DNA of 64,000 nucleotides from Pseudomonadota bacterium (GCA_021324455.1 JAJPJA010000159.1:39239-103238); one strand, 5' to 3'; shown: positions 5,459 to 60,957, counted from the first letter of the stretch. A program made the numbers and translations. The notes: generated by a model not told the origin, from the sequence alone.

Positions 5459-5494
5459 GAATTTTCGACCCGCACCGGCGCGCTCGGCGGGCAA

Positions 5495-26276: not shown

Positions 26277-26437
26277 CGGCGGCCTCCGGAGTGCGGATAT
26301 ACGATAACGGACGTTCAGCTTCAAGCCGGCTTCCGTGCGCTGAAAACAAAGCCTGAAAGGGAAAAAATATGAGCAACCAGGAAAACTTTGTTGAACATAA
26401 AGCTACTTTTTGCTACAAACGGGGCCGGAGGACAAAA

Positions 26438-44266: not shown

Positions 44267-44445
44267 GGTGAGCCTCCGCAGAGCTGCTATTGCGGTTTGG
44301 CTAGCAAAGCAGCGCGGGAACATCAAGGCGCGCCCGCTTTTGGGCAAGCTTCACGGCCGCTTGATTATTGGCAGGCAAAGGGTTACGCGATGTTTCCGAA
44401 ATCGCCGCCGCAATCGCGTGCGGCCTGGAACAAAGGAGAACGCAA

Positions 44446-45198
44446 ATGGCGGGACGGCTGGCCGGCAAAGTTGCCCTGATTACAGGCGGAGCCGCGGGAA
44501 TGGGCGCCGCGTTCGTTCGCGTATTCGCCTCCGAAGGCGCCAAAGTCGCCGCCGCCGATATCCAGGACGACCTGGGACTGAAGGTGGCCGAAGAGGTCAA
44601 CCGCGCCGGCGGCGAGGCGATTTATCTGCATCTCAACGTCGCCGAACAGCGCGACTGGACCGCCGCCGTCGCGCAGACGGTAAGGCGTTTCGGCAAATTG
44701 ACCACGTTATGCAACGTCGCCGGGATCTACCGCACCGAAGGCACCGAGACCGAGACCATCGAGGGATGGCAGCAGCTTATCGCCATCAACCAGACCGGCG
44801 TATGGTTCGGGATGAGAACGGCGATTCCGGAAATGAAGAAGGCCGGGGGCGGCGCGATCGTCAACATCTCGTCGGTGGCCGCGCTTTCCGCGCGCCCGAT
44901 GGCGGTTGCCTATCACGCGGCCAAAGCCGCCGTCCACCTGATGAGTAAGGTGGCAGCGCTGGAATATGCGCGCGACGGCATCCGCGTCAACTCGATTCAT
45001 CCCGGATTCACCATGACCTCCACGGCGTCGGCGCTGCCCGAGGAGATGAAGAAAGCGCTGGCGGATCCGGTGCCGATGGGCCGCGCGGCGGCGCCTGAAG
45101 AGATCGCGTATGGGGCGCTGTATCTATGCTCCGATGAGGCCGCGATCGTCACCGGCACCGAGCTGGTGATCGACGGGGGATTGTCGGCGCGGCATTAA
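44446..45198 (+). CDS. SDR-family oxidoreductase
   Basis: TGGAAGMG, NVAG, YHAAKAA. AAGGAG RBS before the ATG at 44446. Confidence 0.85.
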   Translation: MAGRLAGKVALITGGAAGMGAAFVRVFASEGAKVAAADIQDDLGLKVAEEVNRAGGEAIYLHLNVAEQRDWTAAVAQTVRRFGKLTTLCNVAGIYRTEGTETETIEGWQQLIAINQTGVWFGMRTAIPEMKKAGGGAIVNISSVAALSARPMAVAYHAAKAAVHLMSKVAALEYARDGIRVNSIHPGFTMTSTASALPEEMKKALADPVPMGRAAAPEEIAYGALYLCSDEAAIVTGTELVIDGGLSARH

Positions 45199-45574: not shown

Positions 45575-47488
45575 ATGAATGTAATGTTTAAAAATCGATC
45601 CTGGCGCGAAAAAGCATCCGGGTTGGCCGCGATCGCCGGTTTGGTGATCATGCTCGCGGGAAATTGGGGTTACGCGGGCGCGCCGCCTAACAATGACTCC
45701 AGCGACAGTGGCAACACGGCCGGCGGCACCGGCGCTCTTTCGAGCAACACCAGCGGTTTCAACAACAGCGCCTGGGGCGAGAACGCGCTCAATGTCAACA
45801 GCACCGGCTTCGACAATGCGGCGATCGGACTTAACGCGCTGGAAGAAAATACCAGCGGATTCGAGAACACCGCGGCCGGGGTGGGGGCGCTGGCCAACAA
45901 CACCACCGGGGCCAACAGCGTCGCAATCGGCTTCCAGGCGATGCTGGAGAACACCACCGGCGGCTCATGCACCGCGGTGGGAGAGAACGCTCTGGAAAAC
46001 AACACCACCGGCTTTAAGAATACCGCGGTTGGAATCAATGCGTTGGCCAGCAATACCACCGGCAGCTTCAATACCGCGGTGGGCGACGCGGCACTGTTCA
46101 GCGCCACCACCGGCAGCGGAAGCACCGCGGTCGGCGACGGAGCATTGTTCCACAATACCTCGGGCGGAGCAGTCACCGCGGTCGGGGCCAACGCGCTTCA
46201 GAATAACACCACCGGAAACAACAACAGCGCGCTGGGATTCAATGCGCTGCTGTCAAATACAACGGGGTTCAACAACAGCGCGGTGGGCTTCGAGGCGCTC
46301 AAGCACAACACCACAGGCACCAGCAACACCGGCACGGGAGAGAACGCGCTTAGAGAAAACATCACGGGCAACAGCAACACGGCCACCGGTTCCAACGCTT
46401 TGGTGTTCAACACCAGCGGCTCCAGCAACACCGCGACCGGGATCAACGCGCTGCGGAACAACAATGCGGACAACAATACCGCAACCGGATTGAACGCAAT
46501 GTTCAGCAACAAAAACGGCACGCAGAACACCGCCAACGGCGTCGGCGCGCTGCAGAACAACACCTCGGGTTCGTTCAATACCGCGGTCGGGCTTGGTGCG
46601 CTGAGAAGCAATCTGGGAGGCAACAATAACACCGCTACCGGCATCAACGCGCTGCTGTCCACCACCGTGTCGAATAATACCGCCAACGGCGCCAACGCGT
46701 TGATTCTCGACACCACCGGGACTCAGAACACGGCCAGCGGAATGAACTCGCTGTTTAACAACAGCACCGGCAGCAACAACACCGCGGTCGGATATATCGC
46801 GCTGCAGAACAACACCACCGGCAGCAACAATACCGCTTTGGGATTCGCCGCCCTCAGGGCGAACACCAGCGGTTCCCGCAATGTCGGACTCGGGCTTTTC
46901 GGCGGATCCAACCTTACTACCGGCAACGACAACATCGACATCATCAACGCGGGGGTAGCCGGAGAGTCGGCCCGTATCAGGATCGGTCAGCAGGGCGTGC
47001 AGACGGCGGCCTTTATCGCCGGGATCAGCGGCACTGCGGTGAGCGGCGACGCCGTGGTGGTGAGCGGCTCCGGTCAACTGGGAATCGTGGTATCTTCGGC
47101 GCGCTACAAGAGCGACATCAAAAGCATGGGCGACCGCAGCCACGGACTGCTGAAACTGCGGCCGGTGACTTTTCGCTACAAGGACGACCCCCATGGCGAG
47201 CGACATTACGGCCTGATCGCGGAAGAGGTCGCGCGCGTTTATCCCGACCTGGTCGGTGACGCTCCGGACGGCAGGGTCCAGTCGGTTCATTATCACGAGC
47301 TGGTGCCCCTGCTGCTCAACGAGCTGCAGAAACGGACCATCGAAGTCAACCAGCTTTCGGCCGAGATGGCCGAACTCAAGGCCAGGCTGGCGGCGCTGGA
47401 ACATACCGTCAAGGCGCAGTCGAACCGCACTTTGGCTTCGGCCGCCGGGACAGCAAGGTTGCGCGATGCTCCGAGCGAGGGACGGTAA
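45575..47488 (+). CDS. secreted repeat protein: signal peptide, about 24 tandem 17-residue beta-repeats, and a C-terminal phage tail-fibre intramolecular-chaperone (Peptidase_S74-like) domain
   Basis: Signal peptide MNVMFKNRSWREKASGLAAIAGLVIMLAGNWGYAGA. Repeat unit [ST]G-x2-NTA-x-G-x2-AL-x2-N[ST], reiterated about 24 times. C-terminus SSARYKSDIKS ... LRPVTFRYKDD ... HYGLIAEEV ... YPDLV ... VHYHELVPLLLNELQK matches the Ser-Lys autoproteolytic chaperone of endosialidase and T5 L-shaped-fibre proteins, followed by a coiled-coil tail. Confidence 0.8.
   Translation: MNVMFKNRSWREKASGLAAIAGLVIMLAGNWGYAGAPPNNDSSDSGNTAGGTGALSSNTSGFNNSAWGENALNVNSTGFDNAAIGLNALEENTSGFENTAAGVGALANNTTGANSVAIGFQAMLENTTGGSCTAVGENALENNTTGFKNTAVGINALASNTTGSFNTAVGDAALFSATTGSGSTAVGDGALFHNTSGGAVTAVGANALQNNTTGNNNSALGFNALLSNTTGFNNSAVGFEALKHNTTGTSNTGTGENALRENITGNSNTATGSNALVFNTSGSSNTATGINALRNNNADNNTATGLNAMFSNKNGTQNTANGVGALQNNTSGSFNTAVGLGALRSNLGGNNNTATGINALLSTTVSNNTANGANALILDTTGTQNTASGMNSLFNNSTGSNNTAVGYIALQNNTTGSNNTALGFAALRANTSGSRNVGLGLFGGSNLTTGNDNIDIINAGVAGESARIRIGQQGVQTAAFIAGISGTAVSGDAVVVSGSGQLGIVVSSARYKSDIKSMGDRSHGLLKLRPVTFRYKDDPHGERHYGLIAEEVARVYPDLVGDAPDGRVQSVHYHELVPLLLNELQKRTIEVNQLSAEMAELKARLAALEHTVKAQSNRTLASAAGTARLRDAPSEGR
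45710..46960 (+). repeat. in-frame tandem coding repeat, 51-nt (17-codon) period, about 24 units
   Basis: Reiterated aacaccaccggc / aataccgcggt / aacgcgct motifs read from the DNA; the protein repeat is listed above. Confidence 0.75.
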
Positions 47489-47918: not shown

Positions 47919-49604
47919 TTACGCCCCGCCGCGCAGGACGCGTCCCGGCATCGGACGCTCCGGATCGATCGTATCCCTGCGCTGCTCGCGGATGACCACG
48001 CCGCCTACCATCACCATCTCGATACCCGAGGGCTCGGAGATCAGCCGGTCGGCGCCGCCGGGCAGATCGTTGACCCGGCGCAGCGGACCCGCGCCCACGG
48101 TCTGCGGATCGAACAGCACCAGGTCGGCCGGCGCCCCCACCGCGATACGTCCGCGGTCGCGCAGGCCGTAAACCTCGGCCGGCCGCGCCGACATCATCCG
48201 CACCGCCTGCGGCAGCGTGAGCGCTCCCTTCTCGCGCACCCAATGACCCAGCACGTAGGTGTAAGCGCACGCGTCGCACAGCTGGCTGGCGTGCGCGCCG
48301 GCGTCGGTCAGACCAAGCATCGCGTCCGGCTGATTGAGCAACTGCGCGACCTTGTCCTCGTCGTCGTTCATTATCGTGATACTGAACAGCGCGGTCAGCC
48401 GCGACGCGATCGACAGGTCCAGCATGAGATCGACCGGATGCATGCGGCGCTCGCGGCTTACTTCCGCCACCGTGCGCTGCTCGATTTGCGGCTCGGTCGG
48501 GCACGAGGAGATCCAGATTCGATCCGGGTCAAGCGCGCGGTTGATGGCGGCTTTGGGACCGTCAACCAGTTCCTTGTAAGCGCGGCGGAACTGCGGGTCG
48601 GCGTAAACCCGCATCTTGCCCTCGACCTCCAAAGCCTCGGATACGGGTTTGAAGATGCGGATATTTTCCAGCGGGAACGGCTCGCGGAAATTGAATTCCA
48701 TCGCCAGCGGACGCGCGGAGAACTGCGGCACCAGCGATACGCCTTCGCCATCCAGCTTGCGCATCCGCTCCAGATGCCCCAGCATCCTGGTCCACTCTTC
48801 GCGACCGGCCAGGAACGAGAAGCTGATTGGACGCCCGTTGCCGCGCGCGATCTGCTCGTATTCGTCGTAGGAAAGACCCTGGCCGGTGGCGACTTCCACC
48901 GTTCCCCGGCCGCTCTCTCCCAACACCGAGGTCAGCGCCGTGATTTCCTCTATCGTGGCGAGACGGCTCGGCACCGGACGCCCCATGTAGCCGATGTGCG
49001 CGAAACCCTTGGAGGTGGCGAAGCCGGCCGCGCCGACCGCCATCGCCTCGCGCACCAGCGCCTGCATCGATCTGATTTCGTCCTCAGTCGCGGCGCGCTC
49101 GTACGCGTCCTCGCCCATCACGTACATGCGGATGGCGGTATGCCCGATTAGGGCCGCGACGTTGATTCCAACGCCGCGCCGCTCAATCGCGTCGAGGTAC
49201 TGCGGAAACGTCTGGAACGGCCATTCGTAGCCCAGCCCCGCCTCCAGCGCCGCCAGGCTCATCCCCTCGACCTTCTCCAGCGTACGCATGATCTGACCGC
49301 GATGCTCGGGGCGGGTGGGCGCCACGCCAAAGCCGCAGTTGCCCATCACCACCGTGGTGACGCCGTGCCACGGCGATACCGTCAGCATGCGATCCCACAT
49401 CACCTGGGCGTCGTAATGCGTATGGATATCGACAAAGCCGGGGGCGACGATCAGGCCGGCGGCGTCGATGGTGCGCCGCGCGGTGCCGGGCGCGCCGCCC
49501 ACCGCGACCATGCGGCCGTTTTTGATTGCGACCGCGCCGCGCACGGCGGCGCGCCCGCTGCCGTCGAGGATTAAGCCGCCGTCGATTTTTACGTCGTAAT
49601 CCAT
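47919..49604 (-). CDS. N-acyl-D-amino-acid deacylase (D-aminoacylase) family amidohydrolase, paralog of 37558..39243
   Basis: DYDVKIDGGLILDGSG, PGFVDIHTHYD. GGGAGG RBS before the ATG at 49604; the 5' ORF-track extension is rejected. Confidence 0.8.
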   Translation of the reverse strand: MDYDVKIDGGLILDGSGRAAVRGAVAIKNGRMVAVGGAPGTARRTIDAAGLIVAPGFVDIHTHYDAQVMWDRMLTVSPWHGVTTVVMGNCGFGVAPTRPEHRGQIMRTLEKVEGMSLAALEAGLGYEWPFQTFPQYLDAIERRGVGINVAALIGHTAIRMYVMGEDAYERAATEDEIRSMQALVREAMAVGAAGFATSKGFAHIGYMGRPVPSRLATIEEITALTSVLGESGRGTVEVATGQGLSYDEYEQIARGNGRPISFSFLAGREEWTRMLGHLERMRKLDGEGVSLVPQFSARPLAMEFNFREPFPLENIRIFKPVSEALEVEGKMRVYADPQFRRAYKELVDGPKAAINRALDPDRIWISSCPTEPQIEQRTVAEVSRERRMHPVDLMLDLSIASRLTALFSITIMNDDEDKVAQLLNQPDAMLGLTDAGAHASQLCDACAYTYVLGHWVREKGALTLPQAVRMMSARPAEVYGLRDRGRIAVGAPADLVLFDPQTVGAGPLRRVNDLPGGADRLISEPSGIEMVMVGGVVIREQRRDTIDPERPMPGRVLRGGA

Positions 49605-49804
49605 GATGACCTCCCGCGGCGCCGGCGCCCGCACTTTTGCCAAGCCCAGATGACTGAATTTACACCGATCGACCGGCCGTAGTGCAAACCTTCGCGAACC
49701 GTCCCGCGAGCGCTGGTATTGTCGCGGCATTTTTGACAAACAGGGAAGAGCACCTTGCAGCGGGCGCATGCCCGTTGCTCGCTGATTCGCCGAAAGACCA
49801 GATC

Positions 49805-52279
49805 ATGGGCAAAGACGCCGTCGCCAAGCAGCAGGAAACCAAACCGCACCCGCAATCGCCGGCGCTGAGTGGAATTCGGATTGTCGAATGCGGCCAGGGA
49901 GTCGCGGCGGCGTTCGCGGCCAAACTGATGGCGCTGCTGGGCGCCGACGTCATTAAAGTCGAACCGCTCCAGGGAGATCTCACGCGCCGTCGCGGTCCGT
50001 TCTTCGACACTCCCGACCCGGACCTGAGCGGCCTGTTCCTGTACCTTAACGCCGACAAGCGCGGCGTAGCGCTGGATCTGACGCGCGCCGAGGACCGCGC
50101 CAAGCTCGACCGTCTGCTGGCGCGCGCCGACATTCTCGTCCATAACATCCCGCCGGCTGAGCGCGGCGCCGCGGCGATGGACAGCGCGCGGCTCTGTGAT
50201 ATGCATCCGCGGCTTATCGTCGCGGCGATCTCGCCCTTCGGCGGCAGCGGACCCTATGCAAACTACCGCGCCTGCGAGATCACGGCGGCGTTCGCGTCGG
50301 GGATGCCGTCGACCGGTCCCGGCTCCTCGCCCTTCCCCGACCTTCCGCCGCTCAAACTGTTCGGTCATCAGGCGGAGTTTCAGACCGGAGTTTACGCGGC
50401 GCTGACCGCGCTCAGCGCTTACTACCATCGGATAGCTCACGGCGGATCCGGCCAATGGATCGACCTGGCGGAACAGGTGTGTCTGGCGGCGATGTCGGAA
50501 TCCACGCTGATCCATTACACCTACAACGGCCGGCGGGCGTCGCGGCTGGGCAAATACGGGTTCGGTCCGCGCACCGTCGCGCCGTGCGCCGACGGATGGA
50601 TCCACATCAATTTTCTGGAGGACGCGCAGTGGGAGCGCCTGATGGAACTGCTGGGCAATCCCGAATGGGGCCGCGAGGAGATCTTCAAGGACCGCTACGC
50701 CAGAGGCGCCAATTCCGACGTACTCGAGCCGATGCTTTCGGAGTTGACGCGCAAGTGGAAAACGCACGAGCTGTTCCTTGCCGCGCAGGCCCGTCGAATA
50801 CCGGTGGCGCCGGTCAACCGCGCCTGCGACGCGTATGCCGATCCTCAACTGCGGTCGCGCGCGTTCTTCGCCCCGCTGCCGATGCCGCCTGAAGCGGGCA
50901 GGAGCGTCGAGGTGCCGACCGTGCCGTTCAAGTCCAACGCGATGACCTACCGGCTGAAGCGGCCGGCGCCAAAGTTGGGCGAACACGACCGGGAAGTTTT
51001 CGAAGAATTGGAAAACGCCGCGCACGAAGCGCCCGCCGCGCCTCCACTCGATCGCCCCGCCGTCCTCCCCGGACCGCTCAGCGGCGTGCGCGTGCTGGAC
51101 TTCAGTTGGGTGTGGGCGGGACCCTTCTGCACCGCGCAGCTTGCATTTCTGGGCGCGGAAGTGATTCGAATCGAAAGCTCCAAACGCCTGTGCGCCACCC
51201 GATGCCTGCCGCCTTTCGTGGACGACAAGCCCGGCCCCAATCGCGCCGGTCCCTTCAACCAATGGAATCACAACAAGCTCAGCGTCGAGCTGAACTTAAG
51301 CCGGCCTGAAGCGGTGGAAATCGCATGCGAACTGGTGCGCCATTGCGACGCCGCGGTGGAGAACTTCGGCCCCGGCGTGATCGACCGGATGGGACTGGGC
51401 TACGACGTGCTGAGCCGCCATAAACCGGACCTGATCATGGTGTCCATGTCGGGTTACGGGCGCAGCGGACCCTACTCCCACTTCGTCAACTACGGTCCGC
51501 AGCTTGGCGCGCAATCGGGCTTGCTGTCGGTCACCGGCTACGCCGGCGACCGTCCGCGCGAGGCGGCGGTCGCCTACAGCGATCCGGCCAGCGGTCTGTT
51601 CGCGTCTCATCTGGTGGCCGCCGCCTTGATTCACAAGCGCCGCACCGGCGCGGGGCAGTACATCGACCTCTCGATGCTCGAAGTGCTGGAGATGGTGCTG
51701 CCGGAGATGCTGCTGCAGCATGCGATGACCGGACGCGATCCTGAGCGCAGCGGCAATCGCGACGCGCTGATGTCGCCGCACAACTGCTACAAGGCTTTGG
51801 GCGACGCGGAAGCATGGGTGAGTATCGCCGTCGGGAACGAAACCGAATGGCGGGCGCTGTGCCAGGCGATGGACCAGCCGATGCTGGCGGACGACCCGCG
51901 TTTCGCCGGCGCCGCGATGCGCAAACGCAACGAAGACGAACTCGATCGCATCATTACGCAATGGACCCGCACGCGCGACCGCTGGGAGATCGCCAAACTG
52001 CTGCAAAGCCGGGGCGTCGCGGCCTTCCCCGCCTTCAACAACCAGGACGTCGCCCAGGATCCGCATCTGCGCGCCCGCGGTTTTCTGGTCGAACCCGAGC
52101 ATGCCGAGGGCGGCCGCCTCACCGAGCCCGGCATCCCCTGGATCATGTCGGCGACGCCGTGCGGCGTGCGCCGCGCGTCACCGCCGCTGGGATGCGATAC
52201 CGAAGACGTGTTGACGCGGCTGCTGGGCTACTCGCGCGAGAAAATCGCGGCGCTGCGCCGCGAGGAGATTGTGATCTGA
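49805..52279 (+). CDS. fused tandem family-III CoA-transferase (two CaiB/BaiF domains in one 824-aa chain)
   Basis: Domain 1 LSGIRIVECGQGVAAAFAAKLMALLGADVIKVEP; domain 2 LSGVRVLDFSWVWAGPFCTAQLAFLGAEVIRIES. Each is followed by a full CaiB-like core and the C-terminal small domain. Confidence 0.8.
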   Translation: MGKDAVAKQQETKPHPQSPALSGIRIVECGQGVAAAFAAKLMALLGADVIKVEPLQGDLTRRRGPFFDTPDPDLSGLFLYLNADKRGVALDLTRAEDRAKLDRLLARADILVHNIPPAERGAAAMDSARLCDMHPRLIVAAISPFGGSGPYANYRACEITAAFASGMPSTGPGSSPFPDLPPLKLFGHQAEFQTGVYAALTALSAYYHRIAHGGSGQWIDLAEQVCLAAMSESTLIHYTYNGRRASRLGKYGFGPRTVAPCADGWIHINFLEDAQWERLMELLGNPEWGREEIFKDRYARGANSDVLEPMLSELTRKWKTHELFLAAQARRIPVAPVNRACDAYADPQLRSRAFFAPLPMPPEAGRSVEVPTVPFKSNAMTYRLKRPAPKLGEHDREVFEELENAAHEAPAAPPLDRPAVLPGPLSGVRVLDFSWVWAGPFCTAQLAFLGAEVIRIESSKRLCATRCLPPFVDDKPGPNRAGPFNQWNHNKLSVELNLSRPEAVEIACELVRHCDAAVENFGPGVIDRMGLGYDVLSRHKPDLIMVSMSGYGRSGPYSHFVNYGPQLGAQSGLLSVTGYAGDRPREAAVAYSDPASGLFASHLVAAALIHKRRTGAGQYIDLSMLEVLEMVLPEMLLQHAMTGRDPERSGNRDALMSPHNCYKALGDAEAWVSIAVGNETEWRALCQAMDQPMLADDPRFAGAAMRKRNEDELDRIITQWTRTRDRWEIAKLLQSRGVAAFPAFNNQDVAQDPHLRARGFLVEPEHAEGGRLTEPGIPWIMSATPCGVRRASPPLGCDTEDVLTRLLGYSREKIAALRREEIVI

Positions 52280-52297
52280 GCCAGCCAGGGAGGCATC

Positions 52298-53521
52298 ATG
52301 CCCAATCAGCGGCATATTCTTGAGGGCTACAAAGTTCTCGACATGACCCAGTTTATCGCCGGTCCAACCCTGACCCGGCTGTTGGCGCAAACCGGCGCTG
52401 AAGTGATCAAGGTGGAGAACACGCCTTACGGCGACCCGACCCGCTTTGCGCCGGTTTACAAGGATGGACATAGCTCGTACTTCAGCCAGCACAATCGCGG
52501 CAAGAAAAGCCTGTGCGTCAACGCCAAGGATCCCGAAGGCAGCAGGATTATCAAGGAGCTGCTGACCAGGGTCGATATTCTGGCCGAGAACTTCACGCCC
52601 GGCGTGATGGCTAAGCTGGGGCTCGACTACCGGACCGTCAGCCGCATCAACCCGCGCATCGTGATGTGTTCCATCTCCACCTTCGGCCAGAACGGTCCGC
52701 TCGCGTTCAAGCCCGGCTTCGATCCGATTGGCGCATGCTATGCCGGCATTGTTTCGATGGTCGGCGAGCCGGACGGTCCGCCCTATCCGCTGCGCACCGC
52801 GATGGGCGACGTTATGACCGCGGTCCACGCCTACGGCGCAATCGGCTACGCGCTGCTGCATCGCGAACGCACCGGGCGCGGTCAGTTCCTGGAAGTAACG
52901 CTGCTCGATTCATACTTCCATTGCCATGAGGAGAGCGTCGTATTAGCCAGTTCCAGCCGCGGCGAGATCAAGCCGCGGCGCGCCGGACTGCATCATGAAA
53001 CGCACTGCCCGGTGGGACTGTTCAAGGGCAGGGAACATTATATTTTCATCATCGCGATTACATTGGAGCAGTGGAAATCGCTGTGCCGGGCGATGGGCAA
53101 GCCGGAGATGGGCGACGATCCGCGCTTCAAGACCGAACCCGGACGCGTCGCGCACAAGCAGTTGATTATCGACGCGATCCAGGGATGGCTGGCGTCGATG
53201 CCCAGCGACGACGCGGCGGTCGCCGCGATGGAGGCCAATCACGTACCGGTCGCGCCGGTGCTCTCGGTGGAAGAGGCGATCGACCATCCGCATCTGCGCC
53301 AGCGCGGCACGGTGCGCACGATTACCGATCCGCTGTTGGGCGAGTACCAGGTGCCGGGGTTTCCATTCCGCTTCTCGGATTTTCCGGATGAGTTGACTTT
53401 GGAAACCCCCACGCTGGGTCAGCATAACGCGGAGATCCTCGAGCGCTACCTGGGCTATTCGCCCGAGCGCATCAGCCAGTTGGAATCCGCGGGAGTGCTG
53501 TGCAGGTATAAGCACAAGTGA
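52298..53521 (+). CDS. family-III CoA-transferase (CaiB/BaiF)
   Basis: LEGYKVLDMTQFIAGPTLTRLLAQTGAEVIKVE. AGGGAGG RBS. Confidence 0.85.
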   Translation: MPNQRHILEGYKVLDMTQFIAGPTLTRLLAQTGAEVIKVENTPYGDPTRFAPVYKDGHSSYFSQHNRGKKSLCVNAKDPEGSRIIKELLTRVDILAENFTPGVMAKLGLDYRTVSRINPRIVMCSISTFGQNGPLAFKPGFDPIGACYAGIVSMVGEPDGPPYPLRTAMGDVMTAVHAYGAIGYALLHRERTGRGQFLEVTLLDSYFHCHEESVVLASSSRGEIKPRRAGLHHETHCPVGLFKGREHYIFIIAITLEQWKSLCRAMGKPEMGDDPRFKTEPGRVAHKQLIIDAIQGWLASMPSDDAAVAAMEANHVPVAPVLSVEEAIDHPHLRQRGTVRTITDPLLGEYQVPGFPFRFSDFPDELTLETPTLGQHNAEILERYLGYSPERISQLESAGVLCRYKHK

Positions 53522-53576
53522 GAACGGACGCGGTTGGCTTCTCCGCAGTCCCCGCCGATTCCTCCCTCGAAACACG

Positions 53577-54287
53577 ATGGCTGAAAAAATCGCAAAGGAG
53601 ACTCTCAAAATGGAAGAAATGGGAATATTCCAGGCCATGCACACCGCCCGCGCGCTGCGGCGGCTCAAACCCGATCCCGTTCCCGATGACCTGATCGCCA
53701 AAGTAATCGACGCCGGCGTGCGGGCGCCGACCGGCAGCAACCTGCAGAACTGGCGCTTCGTGGTGGTAAAGGATGCGCAACTGCGGCGCGAGATCGCGGA
53801 TCTCTATCGCGCGTCGATGGAAATCGCGGGCCGGGCCTACGCCAATCGCAAGCAGCCGCCGCATATGACCAACGACAGGCAAAAAGCGATGATGTCGGCC
53901 GCAACCTATCTGGCTCAGCATTTCGGCGAGGTGCCGGTGCTGATCCTTGCGTGGCTGCAATTCACTCCCGAACAGGAGAACCCCCAGTTGCCGCCCGAGC
54001 ATATGCCGACTTTTGTGCGCCTGAGCGGCGGCAGCATTTTCCCCGCCGTCCAGAATATGATCGTTGCCTGCCGCGCGGTCGGCCTCGGCACCGTTCTGAC
54101 CACGGTTCTGGCCTACAAGGAAGCCGAGGTCAGGAACATCATCAACGCTCCCGCCGACATGCGTCTGTACGCGGCGTTGCCGGTGGGCTATCCGATGGAA
54201 GGCTACGGCCACGGTCCCGTCCGCCGGCTGCCGTTGAGCGATGTAACCTTTCTGGATAGGTACGGAAACAACTGGCCGAAAAAATAA
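53577..54287 (+). CDS. nitroreductase-family flavoprotein
   Basis: RALRRLKPDPVPDDL ... APTGSNLQNWRFVVV nitroreductase N-terminal signature. Confidence 0.75.
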   Translation: MAEKIAKETLKMEEMGIFQAMHTARALRRLKPDPVPDDLIAKVIDAGVRAPTGSNLQNWRFVVVKDAQLRREIADLYRASMEIAGRAYANRKQPPHMTNDRQKAMMSAATYLAQHFGEVPVLILAWLQFTPEQENPQLPPEHMPTFVRLSGGSIFPAVQNMIVACRAVGLGTVLTTVLAYKEAEVRNIINAPADMRLYAALPVGYPMEGYGHGPVRRLPLSDVTFLDRYGNNWPKK

Positions 54288-54462
54288 GCTTCACCCAGTA
54301 AGGTAGTCGAGGAAACGGCGAGGCATTGGAGACCGTGCAAACGCCCTGGCGTCTTCCAATTTTACAACTGTGGATTCCGGGCTGACATGGCGGTTTAGAC
54401 AAACCAGCGCCATCAGCGGTATCCTGCCGCCGTCAGGATCAGTCCAAAGGAAAATTTTCGCG

Positions 54463-55926
54463 ATGCCAGACCGCGTATCGAAATCGGCCCGCATCCGGTC
54501 GCGCCTGAATCATCCCATAATCGATTCCGACGGCCATTGGATCGAATACGAACCGCTGGCGCTGGAATACCTGTCGCGCGTGGGCGGCCCCGCTCTGGTG
54601 CGCCGCTACAAGGAAGTATCGGCACCCTTCGGCGCGCTGGCGCGGATGCCGCTGCAGACGCGCAGGGACAAGCGGATTTCGCAGTTCCCATGGTGGGGGG
54701 TGCCGGCGCGAAATACTCTGGACCGCGCCACCGCGATGATGCCGCGCTTGATGCGCGAGCGGCTGGGCGACATGGGGATGGATTTCGCCGTGGTCTATTC
54801 CACCGGCGGATCGCTGTTCGCGCCGTTTTTGCGCGACGAGGAGGTCCGGCGCGCCGCCTGCTGCGCCTTCAACATTTTTCTCGCCGACACGTTTCGCGAT
54901 TTCTCCGACCGCCTCACGCCCGCCGCCGTGATTCCGATGCATACGCCGCAGGAAGCCATCGCCGAACTGGAGCATGTGAAGGAACTGGGCCTCAAGGTGA
55001 TCATGATGTCCAGCCTGATCCGGCGCCCGGTGCCGGAGGTCGCGCGCAAGGCCCCCGAGTACCTGCGCTATGCGCTGTGGATGGACGTGCTGGGGCTGGA
55101 CAGCGACTATGACTACGACCCGGTGTGGCGCAAATGTATCGAACTCGGTCTGGCGCCCACGTTTCATTCCTCGGTCCAGGGCTACGCGCTGCACAGCTCG
55201 CTGACCAACATGGTATACAACCATATCGGGCACTTCGGCGCGGCCGGCGAGGCCGTGTGCAAGGCGATGTTCCTGGGCGGGGTGACGACGCGCTTCCCGC
55301 GGCTCAGATTCGCTTTTTTGGAAGGCGGCGTCAGTTGGGGATGCCGCCTGTATGCCGACCTGATCGGGCATTGGAAGGTGCGCAACGTCCAGGCGCTGGC
55401 TCATATCGACCCGAAAAATCTCGACCTCGCGCAGTTGACCCGCCTGGTCGGCCAATACGGCAGCGACGCGCTGCGGCAGAAGTTCGATCCGGCGCAGGTG
55501 TCGATGGGCGACAGCGCGCCGGAGCAGCTCGACGATTTCGCGCGCTGCGCCGTTCGCCGCCCCGAAGATATCCGCGACCGCTACGTGCCCAACTTTTTCT
55601 TTGGCTGCGAGGCCGAAGATCCGCTCATCGCGTGGGCCTTCAACTCCAAAGTCAATCCGTACGGCGCGCGGCTCAATGCCGTCCTGGGTTCTGATATCGG
55701 TCATTGGGATGTTCCCGACATGGAGGAGATCGCGGCCGAAGCTTATGCGCCGGTCGAAAACGGCGTCATGTCAGCGGAGGATTTCCGCGACTTCACTTTC
55801 GCCAATCCGGTGAAACTGTGGGCGTCGCTCAATCCCGATTTCTTCACGGGCACGGCGGTCGAAGATGAAGTCGCGCGCGAGCTGGCCAATTTCGATCGCA
55901 ACGCGCAACAGGCCTCTCTCCGATGA
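54463..55926 (+). CDS. amidohydrolase-2 family metal-dependent hydrolase/decarboxylase
   Basis: IIDSDGHWIE N-terminal His motif, TIM-barrel amidohydrolase_2 core, VLGSDIGHWD C-terminal metal-ligand motif. Confidence 0.8.
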   Translation: MPDRVSKSARIRSRLNHPIIDSDGHWIEYEPLALEYLSRVGGPALVRRYKEVSAPFGALARMPLQTRRDKRISQFPWWGVPARNTLDRATAMMPRLMRERLGDMGMDFAVVYSTGGSLFAPFLRDEEVRRAACCAFNIFLADTFRDFSDRLTPAAVIPMHTPQEAIAELEHVKELGLKVIMMSSLIRRPVPEVARKAPEYLRYALWMDVLGLDSDYDYDPVWRKCIELGLAPTFHSSVQGYALHSSLTNMVYNHIGHFGAAGEAVCKAMFLGGVTTRFPRLRFAFLEGGVSWGCRLYADLIGHWKVRNVQALAHIDPKNLDLAQLTRLVGQYGSDALRQKFDPAQVSMGDSAPEQLDDFARCAVRRPEDIRDRYVPNFFFGCEAEDPLIAWAFNSKVNPYGARLNAVLGSDIGHWDVPDMEEIAAEAYAPVENGVMSAEDFRDFTFANPVKLWASLNPDFFTGTAVEDEVARELANFDRNAQQASLR

Positions 55927-57143
55927 ACCCCGGCCAGATGAAGCACGTACTGGACGGTTTTCGCGTCCTCGACATTACGCAGTTCATCGCCGGACCGACG
56001 GCGACACGCTTGCTGGCGCAGATGGGAGCCGAAGTGATCAAGCTGGAGCTCGCGCCCACCGGCGATCGCGCCCGGCTGCTGCCGCTGCTGAAGGACGGAC
56101 GCAGTTCGCATTTCGTCCATCACAACCGCGGCAAGAAGAGCCTGTGCCTGGACCTGAACCAGCCGCAGGCGCTGGAGCTGACCCGGCGGATGGTGGCCAG
56201 GGTCGACGTGCTGGTGGAGAACTTCAGTCCGGGCACGATCGCGCGGATGGGCCTGGGATACGACGCCGTCAGCCGCCTCAATCCGCGCCTGGTGATGTGC
56301 TCGATTTCGACCTTCGGCCAGACCGGCAGACTTGCGTCGCTGACCGGATTCGATTTTATCGGCGCCTCCTATGCCGCCGCGATCAGCGCCTTTAACGCGA
56401 ATCGCGAGGGCCAGCCCATCCTGCCCAACATCCCGATCGGCGACGTGATGACCGGGGTGCATGCGGTGGGCGCCATCGCCTGCGCCCTGCTCTACCGCGA
56501 GCGCACCGGCAAAGGCCAATACCTCGACATCTCGCTGCTCGATTCCTACTTCAACTGCCACGAAGTGGTGACCGCGGATCTGCATCGGCGGCAGCTGGAA
56601 AGCGGGCTGGGCGACGCGCATGGCACCAGTATTGTGCCGATGGCGGTGTTTCGCGGCTCGCGGCATTACATCTGTATCATGGCCCCGCAGGACCATCTGT
56701 GGCGCCGGCTGTGCGACGCGATCGGGCGGCCCGAGTTGGGCACCGATCCGCGCTTTGTCGATCACGCCGCGCGCGCCCGCAACCAAACAGACGTGATCGA
56801 TCTTATCCAGTCGTGGCTGGACGCGACCGAAGAGACGGCCGCGCTGGAGATTCTGGAGAAGCATCATGTGCCCGCGGCGCCGGTGCTGACGCTGGCCGAC
56901 GCGATCCAGGATCCAATCCTGCTGGAACGCGGCACCGTCCGCGCCGCGACCGATCGAATCCTGGGCGAAATCAGGGTTCCCGGCCTGCCGCTGCGATTTT
57001 CCGATTTCCCCGGCGAGATGGATGTGCAGGCGCCGTTTCTGGGCGAGCATAATCGCCAGATTCTCTCCGACTATCTGAACCTGTCCGCCGATGAGATCGC
57101 CGCGCTGGAACGCTCCGGTGTCCTGCAGGAGAAGCCAAATTGA
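55923..57143 (+). CDS. family-III CoA-transferase (CaiB/BaiF)
   Basis: LDGFRVLDITQFIAGPTATRLLAQMGAEVIKLE. ATGA overlap with the upstream gene. Confidence 0.85.
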   Translation: MNPGQMKHVLDGFRVLDITQFIAGPTATRLLAQMGAEVIKLELAPTGDRARLLPLLKDGRSSHFVHHNRGKKSLCLDLNQPQALELTRRMVARVDVLVENFSPGTIARMGLGYDAVSRLNPRLVMCSISTFGQTGRLASLTGFDFIGASYAAAISAFNANREGQPILPNIPIGDVMTGVHAVGAIACALLYRERTGKGQYLDISLLDSYFNCHEVVTADLHRRQLESGLGDAHGTSIVPMAVFRGSRHYICIMAPQDHLWRRLCDAIGRPELGTDPRFVDHAARARNQTDVIDLIQSWLDATEETAALEILEKHHVPAAPVLTLADAIQDPILLERGTVRAATDRILGEIRVPGLPLRFSDFPGEMDVQAPFLGEHNRQILSDYLNLSADEIAALERSGVLQEKPN

Positions 57144-58321
57144 GCCGCTACGGTTTGCGCGGCGCGATGGCGATCGTCGGCGCGGCGGACACCAAAGTCG
57201 GCGCGGTGCCCGAACTGACCAGCGCCCAGTTGCAGACCGAGGCGGCGCGGCTGGCGCTGGCTGACGCCGCAATCAGCAAGGATCGAATCGACGGCCTGAT
57301 CACCTGCAACGCCAGCGTCGAGCGCGGTCCGCTGAAGACGTTTCACGCCGAGATGGTGGCCGAACTGCTCGGCATCGCACCCCGCTTTTGTCTGACCGGA
57401 GCGGTCGGCGGCGCGCTGCCGGTCCTGATGATGGAGCATGCGGCGGCGGCCATCGCGGCCGGCTTGTGCCATACCGTGCTGCTGATCTCCGCGGACAACA
57501 TCCTGTCGGCCGCCAAGCGCCGCGCCGCGGTTCCCGAGCCGTGGGACGACCCTCAGTTCGAAGAACCCTACGGCCCGACCACGCCCGCGATGTATGCGCT
57601 CATCGCGCGCGCGCATATGCATCGGTTCGGCACCACCAGCGAGCAGTTCGCGGCCGTGGCCGTGGCCTGCCGCAGACACGCGTCGATGAATCCGGGCGCG
57701 CACAAGCGCGAACCAATCGCGCTTGCCGACGTGCTCAATTCGCGCATGATCGCCGACCCGCTGCATCTGCTGGATTGCAGCCTGGTGTCCGACGGCGGCG
57801 CCGCGATCGTGATGACCGCCGCCCAACGGGCCCGCGATTTCCCCAATCCGCCGGTGTATTTTCTGGGCGCCGGCGAGGCTCATCCGTATCTAAGCCTGCT
57901 GCATGCCGACAGCCTGACGCATTCGGGGGCGATCCAATCCGGCCGCCAGGCTTACGCCGCGGCGGGCGTCGCGCCGCGCGATATCGACCTCGCTTTCGTT
58001 TATGACGCCTTCACCCCGATGGCGATCATTTACCTGGAAGATTTGGGCTTCTGTCCCAAGGGCGAAGGCGGCCGCTTTGTTGAGGGCGGCAATATCGAGC
58101 TGGGAGGACCGCTTCCGATCAATACGCACGGCGGATTGCTGTCGTATTGCCATGCGGGACTGGCCAATTCGATTTTTCACATTACCGAGGCGGTGCGGCA
58201 GTTGCGCGGCGGATGCGGCGCGCGCCAGGTAAACGGAGCGAAGCTGGCAATAATCCACGGGCAGGGCGGCCGCGCCTCCACCCATGGCACGGCGATTTTG
58301 GGAACCGCGGAGACCCTGTGA
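57140..58321 (+). CDS. SCP-x-type thiolase-like protein (DUF35-partnered)
   Basis: AIVGAADTKVG, catalytic-Cys region and C-terminal GGLLSYCHAGLANS. TTG start overlapping the upstream stop. Confidence 0.8.
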   Translation: MSRYGLRGAMAIVGAADTKVGAVPELTSAQLQTEAARLALADAAISKDRIDGLITCNASVERGPLKTFHAEMVAELLGIAPRFCLTGAVGGALPVLMMEHAAAAIAAGLCHTVLLISADNILSAAKRRAAVPEPWDDPQFEEPYGPTTPAMYALIARAHMHRFGTTSEQFAAVAVACRRHASMNPGAHKREPIALADVLNSRMIADPLHLLDCSLVSDGGAAIVMTAAQRARDFPNPPVYFLGAGEAHPYLSLLHADSLTHSGAIQSGRQAYAAAGVAPRDIDLAFVYDAFTPMAIIYLEDLGFCPKGEGGRFVEGGNIELGGPLPINTHGGLLSYCHAGLANSIFHITEAVRQLRGGCGARQVNGAKLAIIHGQGGRASTHGTAILGTAETL

Positions 58322-58728
58322 TGGACGCGCCCGGCAAACTGATCCCGGTCCCGACCCAGGAGACCGCGCCGTTCTGGGAGGGCTGCAAGGCGGGTGAACT
58401 GCGGCTGCAGCGCTGCGCCGATTGCGGCCGTTATCAATTCCCGCCGCAGTCATTTTGCCGCTCTTGTGCGGGCGGCCGTCTTGCCTGGAGCGCAACCTCA
58501 GGCTGCGGCAAAGTGCTGTCCTACACCATCGTGTACTGGTCGCCCAATCCCGCTTACGCCGCCGATGCGCCCTATTCGCTGGCCCTGATCCAGCTCAACG
58601 AAGGCCCGCGGATGCTGACCAACGTCACCGGCTGCCCGCCGCGGCAGCTTCAGATTGGCATGGAAGTCAAAGTAGTATTCGAGCAGTGCGGTCCCGCAAT
58701 CATGCTGCCGAAATTCCAGCCCCTATGA
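58321..58728 (+). CDS. DUF35 OB-fold / zinc-ribbon protein (SCP-x thiolase partner)
   Basis: CxxC ... CxxC rubredoxin-like ribbon (CADCGRYQFPPQSFCRSC) followed by an OB fold. Start overlaps the thiolase stop (TGATG). Confidence 0.75.
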   Translation: MDAPGKLIPVPTQETAPFWEGCKAGELRLQRCADCGRYQFPPQSFCRSCAGGRLAWSATSGCGKVLSYTIVYWSPNPAYAADAPYSLALIQLNEGPRMLTNVTGCPPRQLQIGMEVKVVFEQCGPAIMLPKFQPL

Positions 58729-58785
58729 ACGCAGGCCTGCGCGAGCTGTGGTTGGGGATGGAAAGGGAATGAGGAGCAGGATGCG

Positions 58786-60957
58786 TCACTCGTAGCGCAG
58801 GGCTTCGATCGGGTCGAGCATCGACGCCTTGCTGGCCGGATAGTAGCCGAAGAAGATCCCGATCAGGGCCGAGAAGACAAACCCTCCCGCCACCGCCAGC
58901 GGCGACACCAGCACCGGCCATCCCGCCAGCGCCGATATCATCTTCGAGGCCGCCACGCCCAGCGCGATTCCCGCCAACCCGCCCAGCGCGCTCAACAGGG
59001 TAGCCTCGACCAGGAACTGCATCAGGATCTGCGCGCGCCGTGCGCCAATCGCCTTGCGGATGCCGATCTCGCGGGTGCGCTCCGTGACCGAAACCAGCAG
59101 GATGTTCATGATTCCGATGCCGCCCACCAGCAGCGAAATCGACGCCACCGTGCCCAACAGCAGCGTCAACACGCGGCTGGCGCTCTCGGAGGCCTGCGCG
59201 ATATCGCTCAGGCTGCGCACGGTGAAGTCGTCGTCCTGGCCGGCGGCGATGTGATGTCTGCGATGCAGCGTGTCGCGCGCCGCTGCCTGCGCCGCGTCAA
59301 TCGCGCCCGCGTCGGCCGCCTGGATGAAAATCATGTTGACCACGCCCGAAATCTTGGGCGCGCTGCCGAACGGACTGACCAACGCCGAGGCCGATTGATA
59401 CACCGGGCTCGACGCGGTAGTGCTGGGCAGGCCAAGGTACGGGTTGAGCACCGGGTTGGTGGATCCGGTGGAACTGGCCGGCACGGTCGCGCTTACCTGC
59501 GAGGTGCCCAGCACTTTGCGCTCGGCGGTGTTGAACGGCATCAGCACCACGTCGTCCTGATCCTGCCCGAAGTTGGACTGGCCCTTGGAACTCAGCAAGC
59601 CGACAACGCGAATCGGCACGCCTTTGACCCGGATGACGGCGCCGACCGGATTTTCCCCCTCGCCGAACAGGTTGTTGACCACCGTCTGCCCGAGCAGGCA
59701 TACGGCGGCGCCGGCGCGCGACTCATCGTCAGTGAAGTTGCGTCCCGCCGCCAGCGGCCATTGCCGCACGGTGAGGTAGGACGGCGTCACCCCGTTGATA
59801 CTGGTGCTCCAGTTGCGGTCGCCGTTGACTACCTGCGCCACCTGCCGATTCATGTAGCTGACCGCGGAGACGGCGGGCGACTCCTTCATGATCGCGTCGG
59901 CGTCGGCCGTGGTCAGGGTGGAGATACTGCCGAAACCGGCGCGTACGCCGTTGGACGTGGTCGCACCCGGCAGCACCACGACCAGGTTGCTGCCCAAACT
60001 CTGGATCTGATCGCGCACCGAGGCGCTGGCGCCCTGCCCCACCGCGACCGTCGCGATCACCGCGGCCACGCCGATGAACACGCCCAGCATGGTCAGCGCC
60101 GACCGCATCTTGTTGCGCCGCAGCGCGCGCCACGCCGCCACCAGCGCCATCTGCGCAAACGCCCCCGACCCCGAAGACGACGCCCGCGGCGAAGCCGGCA
60201 CGGCGCCAACCTGAGCAATTGGCGCTGTGGGAGGCCTGGTTCTGCGGTCCGACACCACGATCCCGTCGCGCAGCGTAATCACGCGGTTGGCGTAGGCCGC
60301 GACGTCGGCTTCGTGAGTGACGATGATTATGGTCAGCCCCTGCTCCTGGTTGAGCCGGCGGATTATCGCCATGATCTCGTTGGAGTTCTGCGTATCCAGG
60401 TTGCCGGTCGGTTCGTCCGCCAGCACGATCGCGGGATTGTTGACCAGCGCCCGCGCGATCGCCACCCGCTGCTGCTGTCCCCCGGAAAGCTGATTGGGAT
60501 GATTGGCTTCGCGTCCGGCCAGCCCGACCATTCGCAACAGTTCCCCGGCCCGCGCCGGCCCGTCCTGCGCCGCGCCGCAGTAGAACAGCGGCAGCTCCAC
60601 GTTTTCGGCGGCGCTGGCGCGCACGAGCAGATTGAAGTTCTGGAACACAAAGCCGATACGGCGGCCGCGGATATCGGCCAGCGCTTCGTCATCGAGCATC
60701 GCCGCGTCCACGCCTTCGAGCAGATACTGGCCGCGGGTGGGCCGGTCCAGGCATCCGAGGATGTTCATCAGGGTCGACTTGCCCGATCCCGAAGCACCCA
60801 TGATGGCGACGAAATCGCCGCGCTCGATACTCAGGTTGACGGCGCGCAGCGCGTTTATTTCGACCTCGCCGACCAAATAGGTCTTGTCGAGGTTCCTGAT
60901 TTCGATCAGTGCCGCCGCAGTTTCCTGCTTGGCCGCGGTCCGGGTCTGGCCTGGCAT
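58786..60957 (-). CDS. macB: MacB-type ABC transporter, fused ATPase plus FtsX permease
   Basis: Walker A GASGSGKST, signature LSGGQQQRVAIARAL and Walker B ILADEPTGNLD; a large periplasmic domain lies between TM1 and TM2, and the C-terminus has 4 TM helices. Confidence 0.85.
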   Translation of the reverse strand: MPGQTRTAAKQETAAALIEIRNLDKTYLVGEVEINALRAVNLSIERGDFVAIMGASGSGKSTLMNILGCLDRPTRGQYLLEGVDAAMLDDEALADIRGRRIGFVFQNFNLLVRASAAENVELPLFYCGAAQDGPARAGELLRMVGLAGREANHPNQLSGGQQQRVAIARALVNNPAIVLADEPTGNLDTQNSNEIMAIIRRLNQEQGLTIIIVTHEADVAAYANRVITLRDGIVVSDRRTRPPTAPIAQVGAVPASPRASSSGSGAFAQMALVAAWRALRRNKMRSALTMLGVFIGVAAVIATVAVGQGASASVRDQIQSLGSNLVVVLPGATTSNGVRAGFGSISTLTTADADAIMKESPAVSAVSYMNRQVAQVVNGDRNWSTSINGVTPSYLTVRQWPLAAGRNFTDDESRAGAAVCLLGQTVVNNLFGEGENPVGAVIRVKGVPIRVVGLLSSKGQSNFGQDQDDVVLMPFNTAERKVLGTSQVSATVPASSTGSTNPVLNPYLGLPSTTASSPVYQSASALVSPFGSAPKISGVVNMIFIQAADAGAIDAAQAAARDTLHRRHHIAAGQDDDFTVRSLSDIAQASESASRVLTLLLGTVASISLLVGGIGIMNILLVSVTERTREIGIRKAIGARRAQILMQFLVEATLLSALGGLAGIALGVAASKMISALAGWPVLVSPLAVAGGFVFSALIGIFFGYYPASKASMLDPIEALRYE

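Follow-up and report, generated by a model that had tools for sequence, protein, structure and literature searches.

The 64,000-nt stretch of DNA analysed here over its whole length (the window; GCA_021324455.1, JAJPJA010000159.1:39239-103238, labelled Pseudomonadota bacterium) has a GC content of 64% and carries, at 53577-58728, the block of interest: five open reading frames (ORFs), all on the plus strand, which a preliminary description had read as a CoA-dependent catabolic module resembling that for benzylsuccinate (Bbs). Their GC content at third codon positions (0.76-0.82) matches the expectation for real genes in a window of this composition. The first ORF encodes a nitroreductase-family flavoprotein of 236 residues (53577-54287; PF00881, 92 bits) and is separated by a 175-nt spacer (54288-54462) from genes for a 487-residue protein of the Amidohydro_2 fold (54463-55926; PF04909, 31 bits for a cutoff of 26.4), a 406-residue family III CoA-transferase of the CaiB/BaiF/Frc type (55923-57143; CoA_transf_3, PF02515, 349 bits), a 393-residue SCP-x-type thiolase-fold protein with a TTG start (57140-58321; Thiolase_C_1, PF22691, 185 bits) and a stand-alone DUF35 protein of 135 residues (58321-58728; zf-ChsH2, PF12172, 47 bits, and OB_ChsH2_C, PF01796, 75 bits). 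ORF calls and Pfam families at the fold level thus bear out the five same-strand genes that had been described, as well as the stop-start overlaps said to join the last four, all of which can be read in the sequence: ATGA (55923-55926) between the amidohydrolase-fold and CoA-transferase genes, TTGA (57140-57143) between the latter and the thiolase-like gene, and TGATG (58319-58323) between the thiolase-like and DUF35 genes. An alternative in-frame GTG start for DUF35 at 58318 would turn the last junction into GTGA. The raw ORF of the amidohydrolase-fold gene opens at GTG 54370, and its most likely start, judged by an AGGA-like site ahead of it and by the same Met start in orthologues of 488-492 residues, is ATG 54463. 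The spacer had no Rfam match and a folding z-score of -0.8, its one sigma-70-like match (54396-54425) was weak and within chance expectation, and a promoter and terminator scan of 49000-59200 gave counts at chance level.

Exact-sequence look-ups of the window amidohydrolase-fold protein and CoA-transferase gave no match, and their genomic context was examined in homologues of 80-86% identity (P0001, P0003 and P0008). The order amidohydrolase-fold protein, CoA-transferase, thiolase-like protein, DUF35 is complete in eight copies (the window and loci L001, L005, L006, L007, L008, L090 and L091) and recurs on the partial contigs L092, L093, L094 and L097, with no counter-example among contigs having a close orthologue and enough flanking sequence. 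Amino-acid identities across orthologous blocks range from 65 to 91%, those of the amidohydrolase-fold orthologues being 80-88% on eight contigs (including L001, L005/L006 and L007/L008) and those of the thiolase-like orthologues 82-91% on L090, L091, L092, L093, L094 and L097. The NTGA junction between the CoA-transferase and thiolase-like genes is kept in three orthologous loci, as TTGA in L007 and L090 and as GTGA in L091. Binatia/Binataceae is the group indicated by the source labels of the homologues and by 79 related reference-genome loci; additional members come from Rokubacteria and Methylomirabilota. We take the window to belong to an uncultured, Binatia-like bacterium of soil. The nitroreductase gene, which had been counted as an operon member, is present in the window alone: besides the 175-nt gap that sets it off, it is absent upstream of every orthologous copy examined, so the conserved unit has four genes, not five. 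Going by gene order and junctions, this unit is a four-gene, translationally coupled operon at 54463-58728.

What surrounds the operon varies, the gene directly upstream differing between loci. A divergently transcribed gene for an AurF-like diiron oxygenase (PF11583) and one for an EthD-domain protein lie upstream of the block in L001, L007, L090 and L091, and L001 and L007 also have a cyclase-family gene there; a MatE transporter gene is near the block in these two and in L090. The window has none of them. A P450 gene lies 19 nt upstream of the block in L007, and in L005, where an SGL gene also occurs, a gene for an HpcH/HpaI lyase lies 15 nt upstream. Acyl-CoA dehydrogenase genes are a few kb away in L001 and L005, and the conserved block itself contains neither an acyl-CoA dehydrogenase nor a hydratase gene. 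The CoA-transferase and thiolase-like genes of L001 read as a single ORF of 799 residues, which DNA alignment with the window, L007, L090 and L091 traces to one inserted base (L001 12600-12745) some 40 nt ahead of the usual stop codon; it may be a real fusion or an assembly indel, and we gave it little weight as Rosetta-stone evidence since such an insertion could be an assembly error.

The protein encoded at 54463-55926 had been assigned to the ACMSD/LigW-type amidohydrolase-2 proteins, as a candidate decarboxylase or hydratase. A single-sequence search of the PDB instead gave PtmU3 (6omp) and DitZ (8uyr) as best matches, and a 17-sequence profile placed DitZ (7e-12), PtmU3 (5e-11) and SfbO (4e-8) on top, with ACMSD, LigW and other decarboxylases below. 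The three belong to the amidohydrolase-related dinuclear oxygenases (AROs), which use O2 to hydroxylate C-H bonds at an Fe2 or Mn/Fe site housed in the PF04909 fold (PMC10811679; PMC13154177). Their signature consists of an N-terminal D-x-H (metal site 1), a His, a bridging Glu and a C-terminal D-x-P-H-x-D/E loop (metal site 2), and the D-x-H and D-x-x-H-x-D/E elements are reported to be absent from characterised hydrolases, hydratases and decarboxylases of PF04909 (PMC13154177). Candidate ligands in the window protein are D23-x-H25 (54529-54537), H235 (55165), E287 (55321) and the loop D411-I-G-H414-W-D416 (55693-55710); D23, H25, H235, E287, D411, H414 and D416 are all invariant in a 119-sequence alignment and correspond to Asp25, His27, His211, Glu265, Asp337, His340 and Asp342, the ligands of AibH2 (PMC7782822). 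By motif, 113 of 120 homologues have D-x-D-x-H, 118 the His, 114 the Glu and 118 the C-terminal element. The N-terminal segment I-I-D-S-D23-G-H25-W sits on a predicted strand (residues 20-26), H235 (T-F-H-S) aligns with S-L-H-I of DitZ, S-I-H-I of PtmU3 and C-V-H-F of SfbO, E287 (F-L-E-G-G) with S-E-G-G, A-E-A-G and I-E-H-D, and the three functional residues of S-D411-I-G-H414-W-D416 with those of PtmU3 D-Y-P-H-L-E. The mononuclear site of decarboxylases and LigJ is not matched, the N-terminal motif being D-x-H and the C-terminal loop having an extra His and Asp.

Structure prediction agreed with these assignments. A first AlphaFold model built from 17 sequences had a predicted local distance difference test score (pLDDT) of 61, and its Foldseek ranking was not relied on; a second AF2 model from 119 sequences reached a pLDDT of 92 and a predicted template modelling score of 0.91. 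In a Foldseek search of the PDB with the latter, PtmU3, DitZ, SfbO, TruffO and AibH1H2 took ranks 1-7, 9 and 11, uncharacterised 4dzi took ranks 8 and 10, and the first decarboxylase appeared at rank 12, the E-values of decarboxylases and LigJ being 2-4 orders of magnitude weaker than those of AROs. Template modelling scores normalised to target length were 0.67-0.74 for PtmU3, SfbO and AibH2. The window protein thus has the amidohydrolase-2 TIM-barrel fold and the metal ligands of PtmU3 (6omp-6omr), DitZ (8uyr), SfbO (8sm6) and AibH2, from which it differs in its low identity to them (15-18%), in its length (about 490 residues versus 350-420, with extra helical insertions such as residues 26-105), in having Gly, Ser or Ala, across its clade, for the Pro of the C-terminal loop, and in having no adjacent Rieske ferredoxin or other reductase. 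Ligand set, profile search and predicted fold make it quite probable that this protein is an ARO-type oxygenase with a dinuclear site (Fe/Fe or Mn/Fe), and they move it away from the decarboxylases and hydratases among which it had been placed.

The thiolase-fold protein (57140-58321) and its DUF35 neighbour had been taken for a thiolytic core of the BbsAB kind. Against the PDB, the former ranked 4u4e first (300 bits), then Ltp2 (6ok1, 206 bits), Sal (9myr, 186 bits), archaeal thiolases (about 152 bits) and BbsB (7pxp, 132 bits); 4u4e, the closest structure, is uncharacterised and has the motif YDSF. Both catalytic cysteines of thiolases are missing. The nucleophilic Cys aligns, depending on the aligner, with Val89 or Gly91 (57410) of G-A-V-G-G-A, the sole nearby Cys (C84) lying 5-7 residues upstream and not being kept in 4u4e or in 42% identical homologues, while the HDCF motif of the acid/base Cys is replaced by Y288-D-A-F (from 58001); Gly91 and the YDAF features are identical in all orthologues. 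Tyr288 aligns with Tyr294 of Ltp2 and Tyr302 of Sal. In these two aldolases the Tyr of YDHF (Ltp2) or YDCY (Sal) is the catalytic base for retro-aldol cleavage of a 3-hydroxyacyl-CoA, the nucleophile position is occupied by Gly, which rules out thiolysis, and a second catalytic residue is provided by Tyr344 in Ltp2 and by Cys304 of YDCY in Sal (PMC12329534). Where Ltp2 has Tyr344 and Sal has Gln352, the window protein has His338 (58151), the His that true thiolases retain, and where Sal has Cys304 it has Ala290; it would thus represent a third active-site variant of the thiolase-fold aldolases, in which His338 or Cys337 could be the general acid.

The DUF35 protein has a C4 zinc ribbon (C-x2-C-x10-C-x2-C) and an OB fold, and its best PDB matches were the Shy DUF35 of the Sal complex (9myr_B, 1.4e-26) and the ChsH2 DUF35 of the Ltp2 complex (6ok1_B, 2.6e-21); a thiolase/HMGCS DUF35 was a weaker match (2e-13) and BbsA gave none. 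NCBIfam equivalog scores were likewise far below the cutoffs for BbsB (142 bits versus 750) and BbsA (33 bits versus 250). Ltp2-ChsH2 and Sal-Shy, which supply the best characterised matches for both window subunits, share with them the thiolase fold, the Gly at the nucleophile position, the Y-D-x-F Tyr and an obligatory zinc-ribbon DUF35 partner. They differ in having YDHF or YDCY for the YDAF of the window protein, in a DUF35 that is the C-terminal domain of a MaoC hydratase rather than stand-alone, and in a hydratase and an acyl-CoA dehydrogenase for which the window operon has no counterpart. We consider it likely, from the active-site residues, that the 57140-58321 protein is a retro-aldolase rather than a thiolase, with the DUF35 protein as its predicted partner subunit. 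A second thiolase-fold protein in the window (406 residues, 5495-6715, minus strand) also has YDAF and no nucleophilic Cys (G-G-G-S-S) and, with a Tyr at the position of Ltp2 Tyr344 (S-E-G-Y-T-H-G), is more Ltp2-like than that of the operon; no DUF35 gene is adjacent to it, and the 472-residue ORF abutting it downstream (4076-5494, minus strand) has no Pfam match.

The CoA-transferase of the operon matches PF02515 over its full length (model positions 1-366 of 366). Its active-site Asp is D174 in I-G-D-V-M-T-G, aligned with the conserved Asp of SUGCT, Frc and YfdW. The best PDB matches were SUGCT (9br6, 2e-64) and formyl-CoA transferases, BbsF (2e-44) and racemases (1e-21) being weaker, and the protein scored below every NCBIfam equivalog cutoff. 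Two further family III CoA-transferase genes precede the block on the same strand: a fused double one at 49805-52279 (PF02515 twice, 609 bits; the ORF opens at GTG 49682 and ATG 49805 is the probable start) and a CaiB-like one at 52298-53521 (407 residues; PF02515, 379 bits), whose product is about 53% identical to orthologues of the block CoA-transferase (tblastn). Relatives of the fused protein (53-58% identity; 53% in L058) are found immediately ahead of ARO paralogues at three loci of other Binatia-like genomes. L055 and L058 each have a single stretch that matches the fused protein as a whole, L047 has two CoA-transferase segments side by side, and both L047 and L055 have a third CoA-transferase between this relative and the ARO paralogue. 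An ARO preceded by a CoA-transferase array is hence a recurrent arrangement in its own right, which ties the window array (49805-53521) possibly to the block in function, as the preliminary description had implied in relating the upstream CoA-transferases to the module; by this comparison, it may be an upstream activation array.

ARO paralogues elsewhere were surveyed at 79 loci in reference genomes (L010-L088; clade sequences P0001-P0270). The clade comprises proteins of about 490 residues with D-x-[G/S/A]-H-x-D in place of D-x-P-H-x-D/E. It is concentrated in uncultured Binatia, Rokubacteria and Methylomirabilota. Scanning one genome per species gave at least 592 confirmed matches, with more than one paralogue in several metagenome-assembled genomes, and phmmer against 1.84 billion cluster representatives (50% identity) gave 559 clusters at E<=1e-30. 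Usual neighbours of the paralogues are, by names deduced from unscanned representatives, luciferase-like monooxygenases, short-chain dehydrogenases/reductases (SDRs), a second PF04909 protein, CoA-transferases and Amidohydro_3 proteins. Family III CoA-transferases occur within 8 kb at 17 of the 79 loci, often in tandem and directly adjacent. A nitroreductase, which we had considered as a dedicated reductase and conserved feature, is near one of the 79 and in none of the orthologous blocks, and was rejected as such; the window nitroreductase scored below all NCBIfam cutoffs, and that it serves as electron donor, in the window alone, would be speculation.

ARO paralogues adjoin pairs of a Cys-less, Tyr-containing SCP-x-fold protein and a DUF35 protein in L054 and L072. 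Plasmid pSA2 of Novosphingobium resinovorum (L102, 422770-447531) encodes a canonical PtmU3-like ARO (D-A-H, F-H-T-G, F-V-E-S-G, D-Y-P-H-A-E) and, within 13 kb of it, a Cys-less Ltp2-type aldolase (YDHF, E-A-Y-I) with an OB-fold/DUF35 protein, along with a phenylacetate-CoA-ligase-like gene, a CaiB transferase, SDRs and an acyl-CoA dehydrogenase. Going by these motifs and neighbourhoods, the pairing of an ARO with a Cys-less aldolase-like protein and DUF35 recurs independently. The pSA2 locus is loosely organised and catabolic, and the species name hints at resin-acid degradation. Homologues of 39-41% identity in Variovorax paradoxus (L089) and Pseudanabaena sp. ABRG5-3 (L101) lie in sulfonate-utilisation loci, beside genes for TauD/TfdA dioxygenases and ABC transporters (annotated as aliphatic-sulfonate transporters in L101) and, in L101, an LLM flavin-dependent oxidoreductase, which suggests, by analogy with the sulfonate β-monooxygenase SfbO, that they are sulfonate-oxidising members of the clade. 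The window also encodes a second PF04909 protein (364 residues; 29875-30969, minus strand) with the canonical ARO signature, Pro included (I-S-A-D-S-H, S-F-H-I-L-T, V-E-A-D-A-G-W, N-D-F-P-H-S-D), near genes for a PNPOx-like protein (29365-29844), an enoyl-CoA hydratase (31120-31968) and luciferase-like monooxygenases (25260-26324 and 26977-27984).

Altogether, we regard the module as three known kinds of enzyme, with new sub-variants among them, brought together in a new way, and propose that they act as follows. The family III CoA-transferase would turn a free carboxylic acid into its CoA thioester, with succinyl-CoA, for example, or a short acyl-CoA freed in the cleavage step as donor. The ARO would then use O2 to hydroxylate an unactivated C-H of the acyl-CoA, most likely at the β-carbon by analogy with PtmU3, and the aldolase-like protein with DUF35 would split the resulting 3-hydroxyacyl-CoA by a retro-aldol reaction, Tyr288 acting as base, into an aldehyde or ketone and a short acyl-CoA that could re-enter as CoA donor. 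In sum, an oxygenolytic sequence would stand in for the dehydrogenase, hydratase, dehydrogenase and thiolase steps, a bypass suited to acids whose α- or β-carbon is quaternary, tertiary or in a ring, such as those of terpenoid or naphthenic type. We give this three-step scheme (CoA transfer, β hydroxylation, retro-aldol cleavage) a probability of roughly one in two; the order of the reactions, the β regiochemistry, the substrate class and the CoA and electron donors are parts of it that we infer, while the gene content, the overlaps, the conserved gene order, the ligand and catalytic motifs and the nearest solved relatives are directly shown. That the four genes constitute a self-contained, O2-dependent alternative to β-oxidation, in which a previously unrecognised, Pro-less clade of AROs places the β-hydroxyl straight onto the saturated acyl-CoA and a third, YDAF/His type of aldolase splits the product, is put forward more tentatively.

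Several precedents bear on the scheme. PtmU3 is described as a β-hydroxylase taking CoA-ligated substrates (PMC7782822; PMC13154177), that is, as performing on a CoA-ligated acid the step proposed for the block; together with the CoA-transferases at 17 of the 79 paralogue loci, this suggests by analogy that the ARO of the block probably acts on a CoA ester. The block pairs it with a CoA-transferase where PtmU3-type systems have an acyl-CoA synthetase. The same logic of CoA activation, hydroxylation at the β-carbon and retro-aldol cleavage, for an acid with a quaternary α-carbon, has been proposed for ring-A opening in (-)-Ambrox catabolism by Sphingomonas; there the steps are CoA ligation, hydroxylation at C5 and ring opening by a retro-aldol reaction, and platensimycin biosynthesis is named as the precedent (PMC13599519). 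That route was derived from metabolites, with activation presumed to be by a ligase; its hydroxylase and aldolase genes could not be found, and its genes are reported not to form an operon (PMC13599519). None of the papers in the collection searched combines DUF35, an amidohydrolase and a CoA-transferase. As for the Bbs system, BbsEF and BbsAB likewise combine family III CoA-transferases with a thiolase-fold protein and DUF35, and it is the source of the idea that the acyl-CoA from cleavage serves as CoA donor; unlike the window protein, BbsB has the catalytic cysteines of a true thiolase. Dehydrogenase and hydratase genes are part of the bbs operon, which lacks an oxygenase gene and serves an anaerobic pathway.

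Set against this scheme are a number of observations. The Pro of the ARO C-terminal motif is never kept in the clade; Gly, Ser or Ala takes its place in 118 of the 120 close homologues and in 82 of 92 diverse ones (full-length sequences representing clusters at 50% identity, of which the ten exceptions mostly seem to be frameshifted), so that the window protein does not match the strict published pattern D-x-P-H-x-D/E and the ScanProsite filter behind the roughly 17,000 published AROs would miss the clade. Placement of the clade among AROs is by sequence and fold. No reductase or ferredoxin is encoded in the conserved block or found among the recurrent neighbours of the 79 paralogue loci; many AROs were discovered through an adjacent Rieske ferredoxin (PMC10811679), an adjacency that is not universal. 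The β regiochemistry is drawn from analogy, and an ARO need not use a CoA ester, as DitZ works on the free acid dehydroabietate (PMC13154177). Since the second catalytic residue of Ltp2 and Sal is not conserved, the thiolase-fold protein may catalyse a different reaction. Finally, the AurF-like, EthD, MatE and P450 genes often found beside orthologous blocks could indicate metabolite tailoring.

One alternative is that the enzyme classes are right but the steps not consecutive, with the ARO acting on a free acid or at a non-β position and the CoA-transferase and aldolase working elsewhere with unlinked enzymes. DitZ sets the example for a free acid, and about 60 of the 79 ARO paralogues have no CoA-transferase nearby; the tight overlap coupling and the strict conservation of the four-gene order make such a division of labour unlikely, as does the reading of the L001 CoA-transferase and aldolase genes as one ORF, with the reservation already made about its origin. 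Equally hard to favour is a non-redox metallo-hydratase or hydrolase, dinuclear or mononuclear, which would feed the aldolase by enoyl-CoA hydration or by lactone or ring opening, much as in ChsH1-ChsH2/Ltp2 or Shy/Sal with a TIM-barrel hydratase replacing the MaoC hydratase. A hydratase does precede the aldolase in the known Ltp2 and Sal systems (PMC12329534), PF04909 includes hydratases such as LigJ, and the missing Pro, the lack of a reductase in the block and the acyl-CoA dehydrogenase genes of L001 and L005 all fit that account. The seven-residue ligand pattern is nevertheless that of AROs, absent as noted above from the characterised hydrolases, hydratases and decarboxylases of the family (PMC13154177), the best sequence and fold matches are all oxygenases, the acyl-CoA dehydrogenase genes are outside the conserved block, and the Variovorax and Pseudanabaena homologues sit amid TauD and LLM genes of sulfonate loci, SfbO being an ARO as well.

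We also judge it improbable that the cassette tailors a secondary metabolite, by oxidative ring cleavage of a terpenoid or polyketide acid or by a condensation on the thiolase-fold/DUF35 pair followed by export. PtmU3 is itself biosynthetic, and the blocks of L001, L007, L090 and L091 have the AurF-like and EthD neighbours described above, with MatE, P450 and cyclase-family genes at some of them; yet no terpene synthase, polyketide synthase or nonribosomal peptide synthetase gene was seen within 10 kb at any locus, and the block occurs in unrelated surroundings, beside CoA-transferase and nitroreductase genes in the window and beside HpcH/HpaI and SGL genes in L005. Moreover, CoA-transferases, as opposed to ATP-dependent ligases, are typical of catabolism. 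Least credible by far is the Bbs-like thiolytic module of CoA-transferase, SCP-x thiolase/DUF35, nitroreductase and ACMSD/LigW-type decarboxylase or LigJ-type hydratase, which, right as its families are at the fold level, and with BbsB, BbsA and BbsF detectable as distant relatives and decarboxylases and LigJ sharing the fold lower in the match lists, is largely refuted by the loss of both thiolase cysteines and further opposed by the low BbsA and BbsB equivalog scores and a DUF35 closest to aldolase partners, by ligands of the ARO set rather than the H-x-H or E-x-H sets of decarboxylases, and by a nitroreductase that is not conserved with the block. What stands of that earlier view is a tightly coupled, CoA-dependent module for a carboxylic acid, with a gene order found in no characterised pathway; the thiolytic chemistry and the decarboxylase do not.

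The proposed scheme of CoA transfer, ARO hydroxylation and retro-aldol cleavage would matter for several reasons. Standard annotation would call the ARO-like and aldolase-like gene products "amidohydrolase" and "acetyl-CoA acetyltransferase/thiolase", and the sequence evidence suggests that neither name fits the reaction. If the scheme is true, the operon would offer a compact, transplantable candidate for C-C cleavage beside quaternary or ring carbons of saturated acids, those of the terpenoid, resin-acid and naphthenic-acid types among them. If the four genes do form the self-contained route described above, they would be the first genes for the succession of "CoA activation, β C-H hydroxylation, retro-aldol" that has been put forward for terpenoids containing quaternary carbons, a chemistry to which none have so far been assigned in catabolism and for which the 2026 Ambrox study lacked them. 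A clade invisible to the published D-x-P-H-x-D/E filter would join the ARO superfamily, and its large expansion in Binatia and Rokubacteria would then suggest oxygenolytic catabolism of acids resistant to β-oxidation, and the YDAF/His site would add a third variant to the thiolase-fold aldolases, of interest for biocatalysts.

The remaining neighbours listed in the preliminary description were all found, along with the fused CoA-transferase and CaiB homologue dealt with above: its D-aminoacylases, as Amidohydro_3 matches at 47919-49769 and 37558-39243 (both minus strand), its SDRs at 36552-37310 (minus), 39373-40134 (plus) and 44368-45198 (plus), and a BKACE gene at 43397-44347 (minus). Amid these metabolic genes, at 45575-47488 on the plus strand, lies an ORF of 637 residues with a C-terminal Peptidase_S74 (endosialidase chaperone) domain, and a similar gene is found upstream of the orthologous block in L006.

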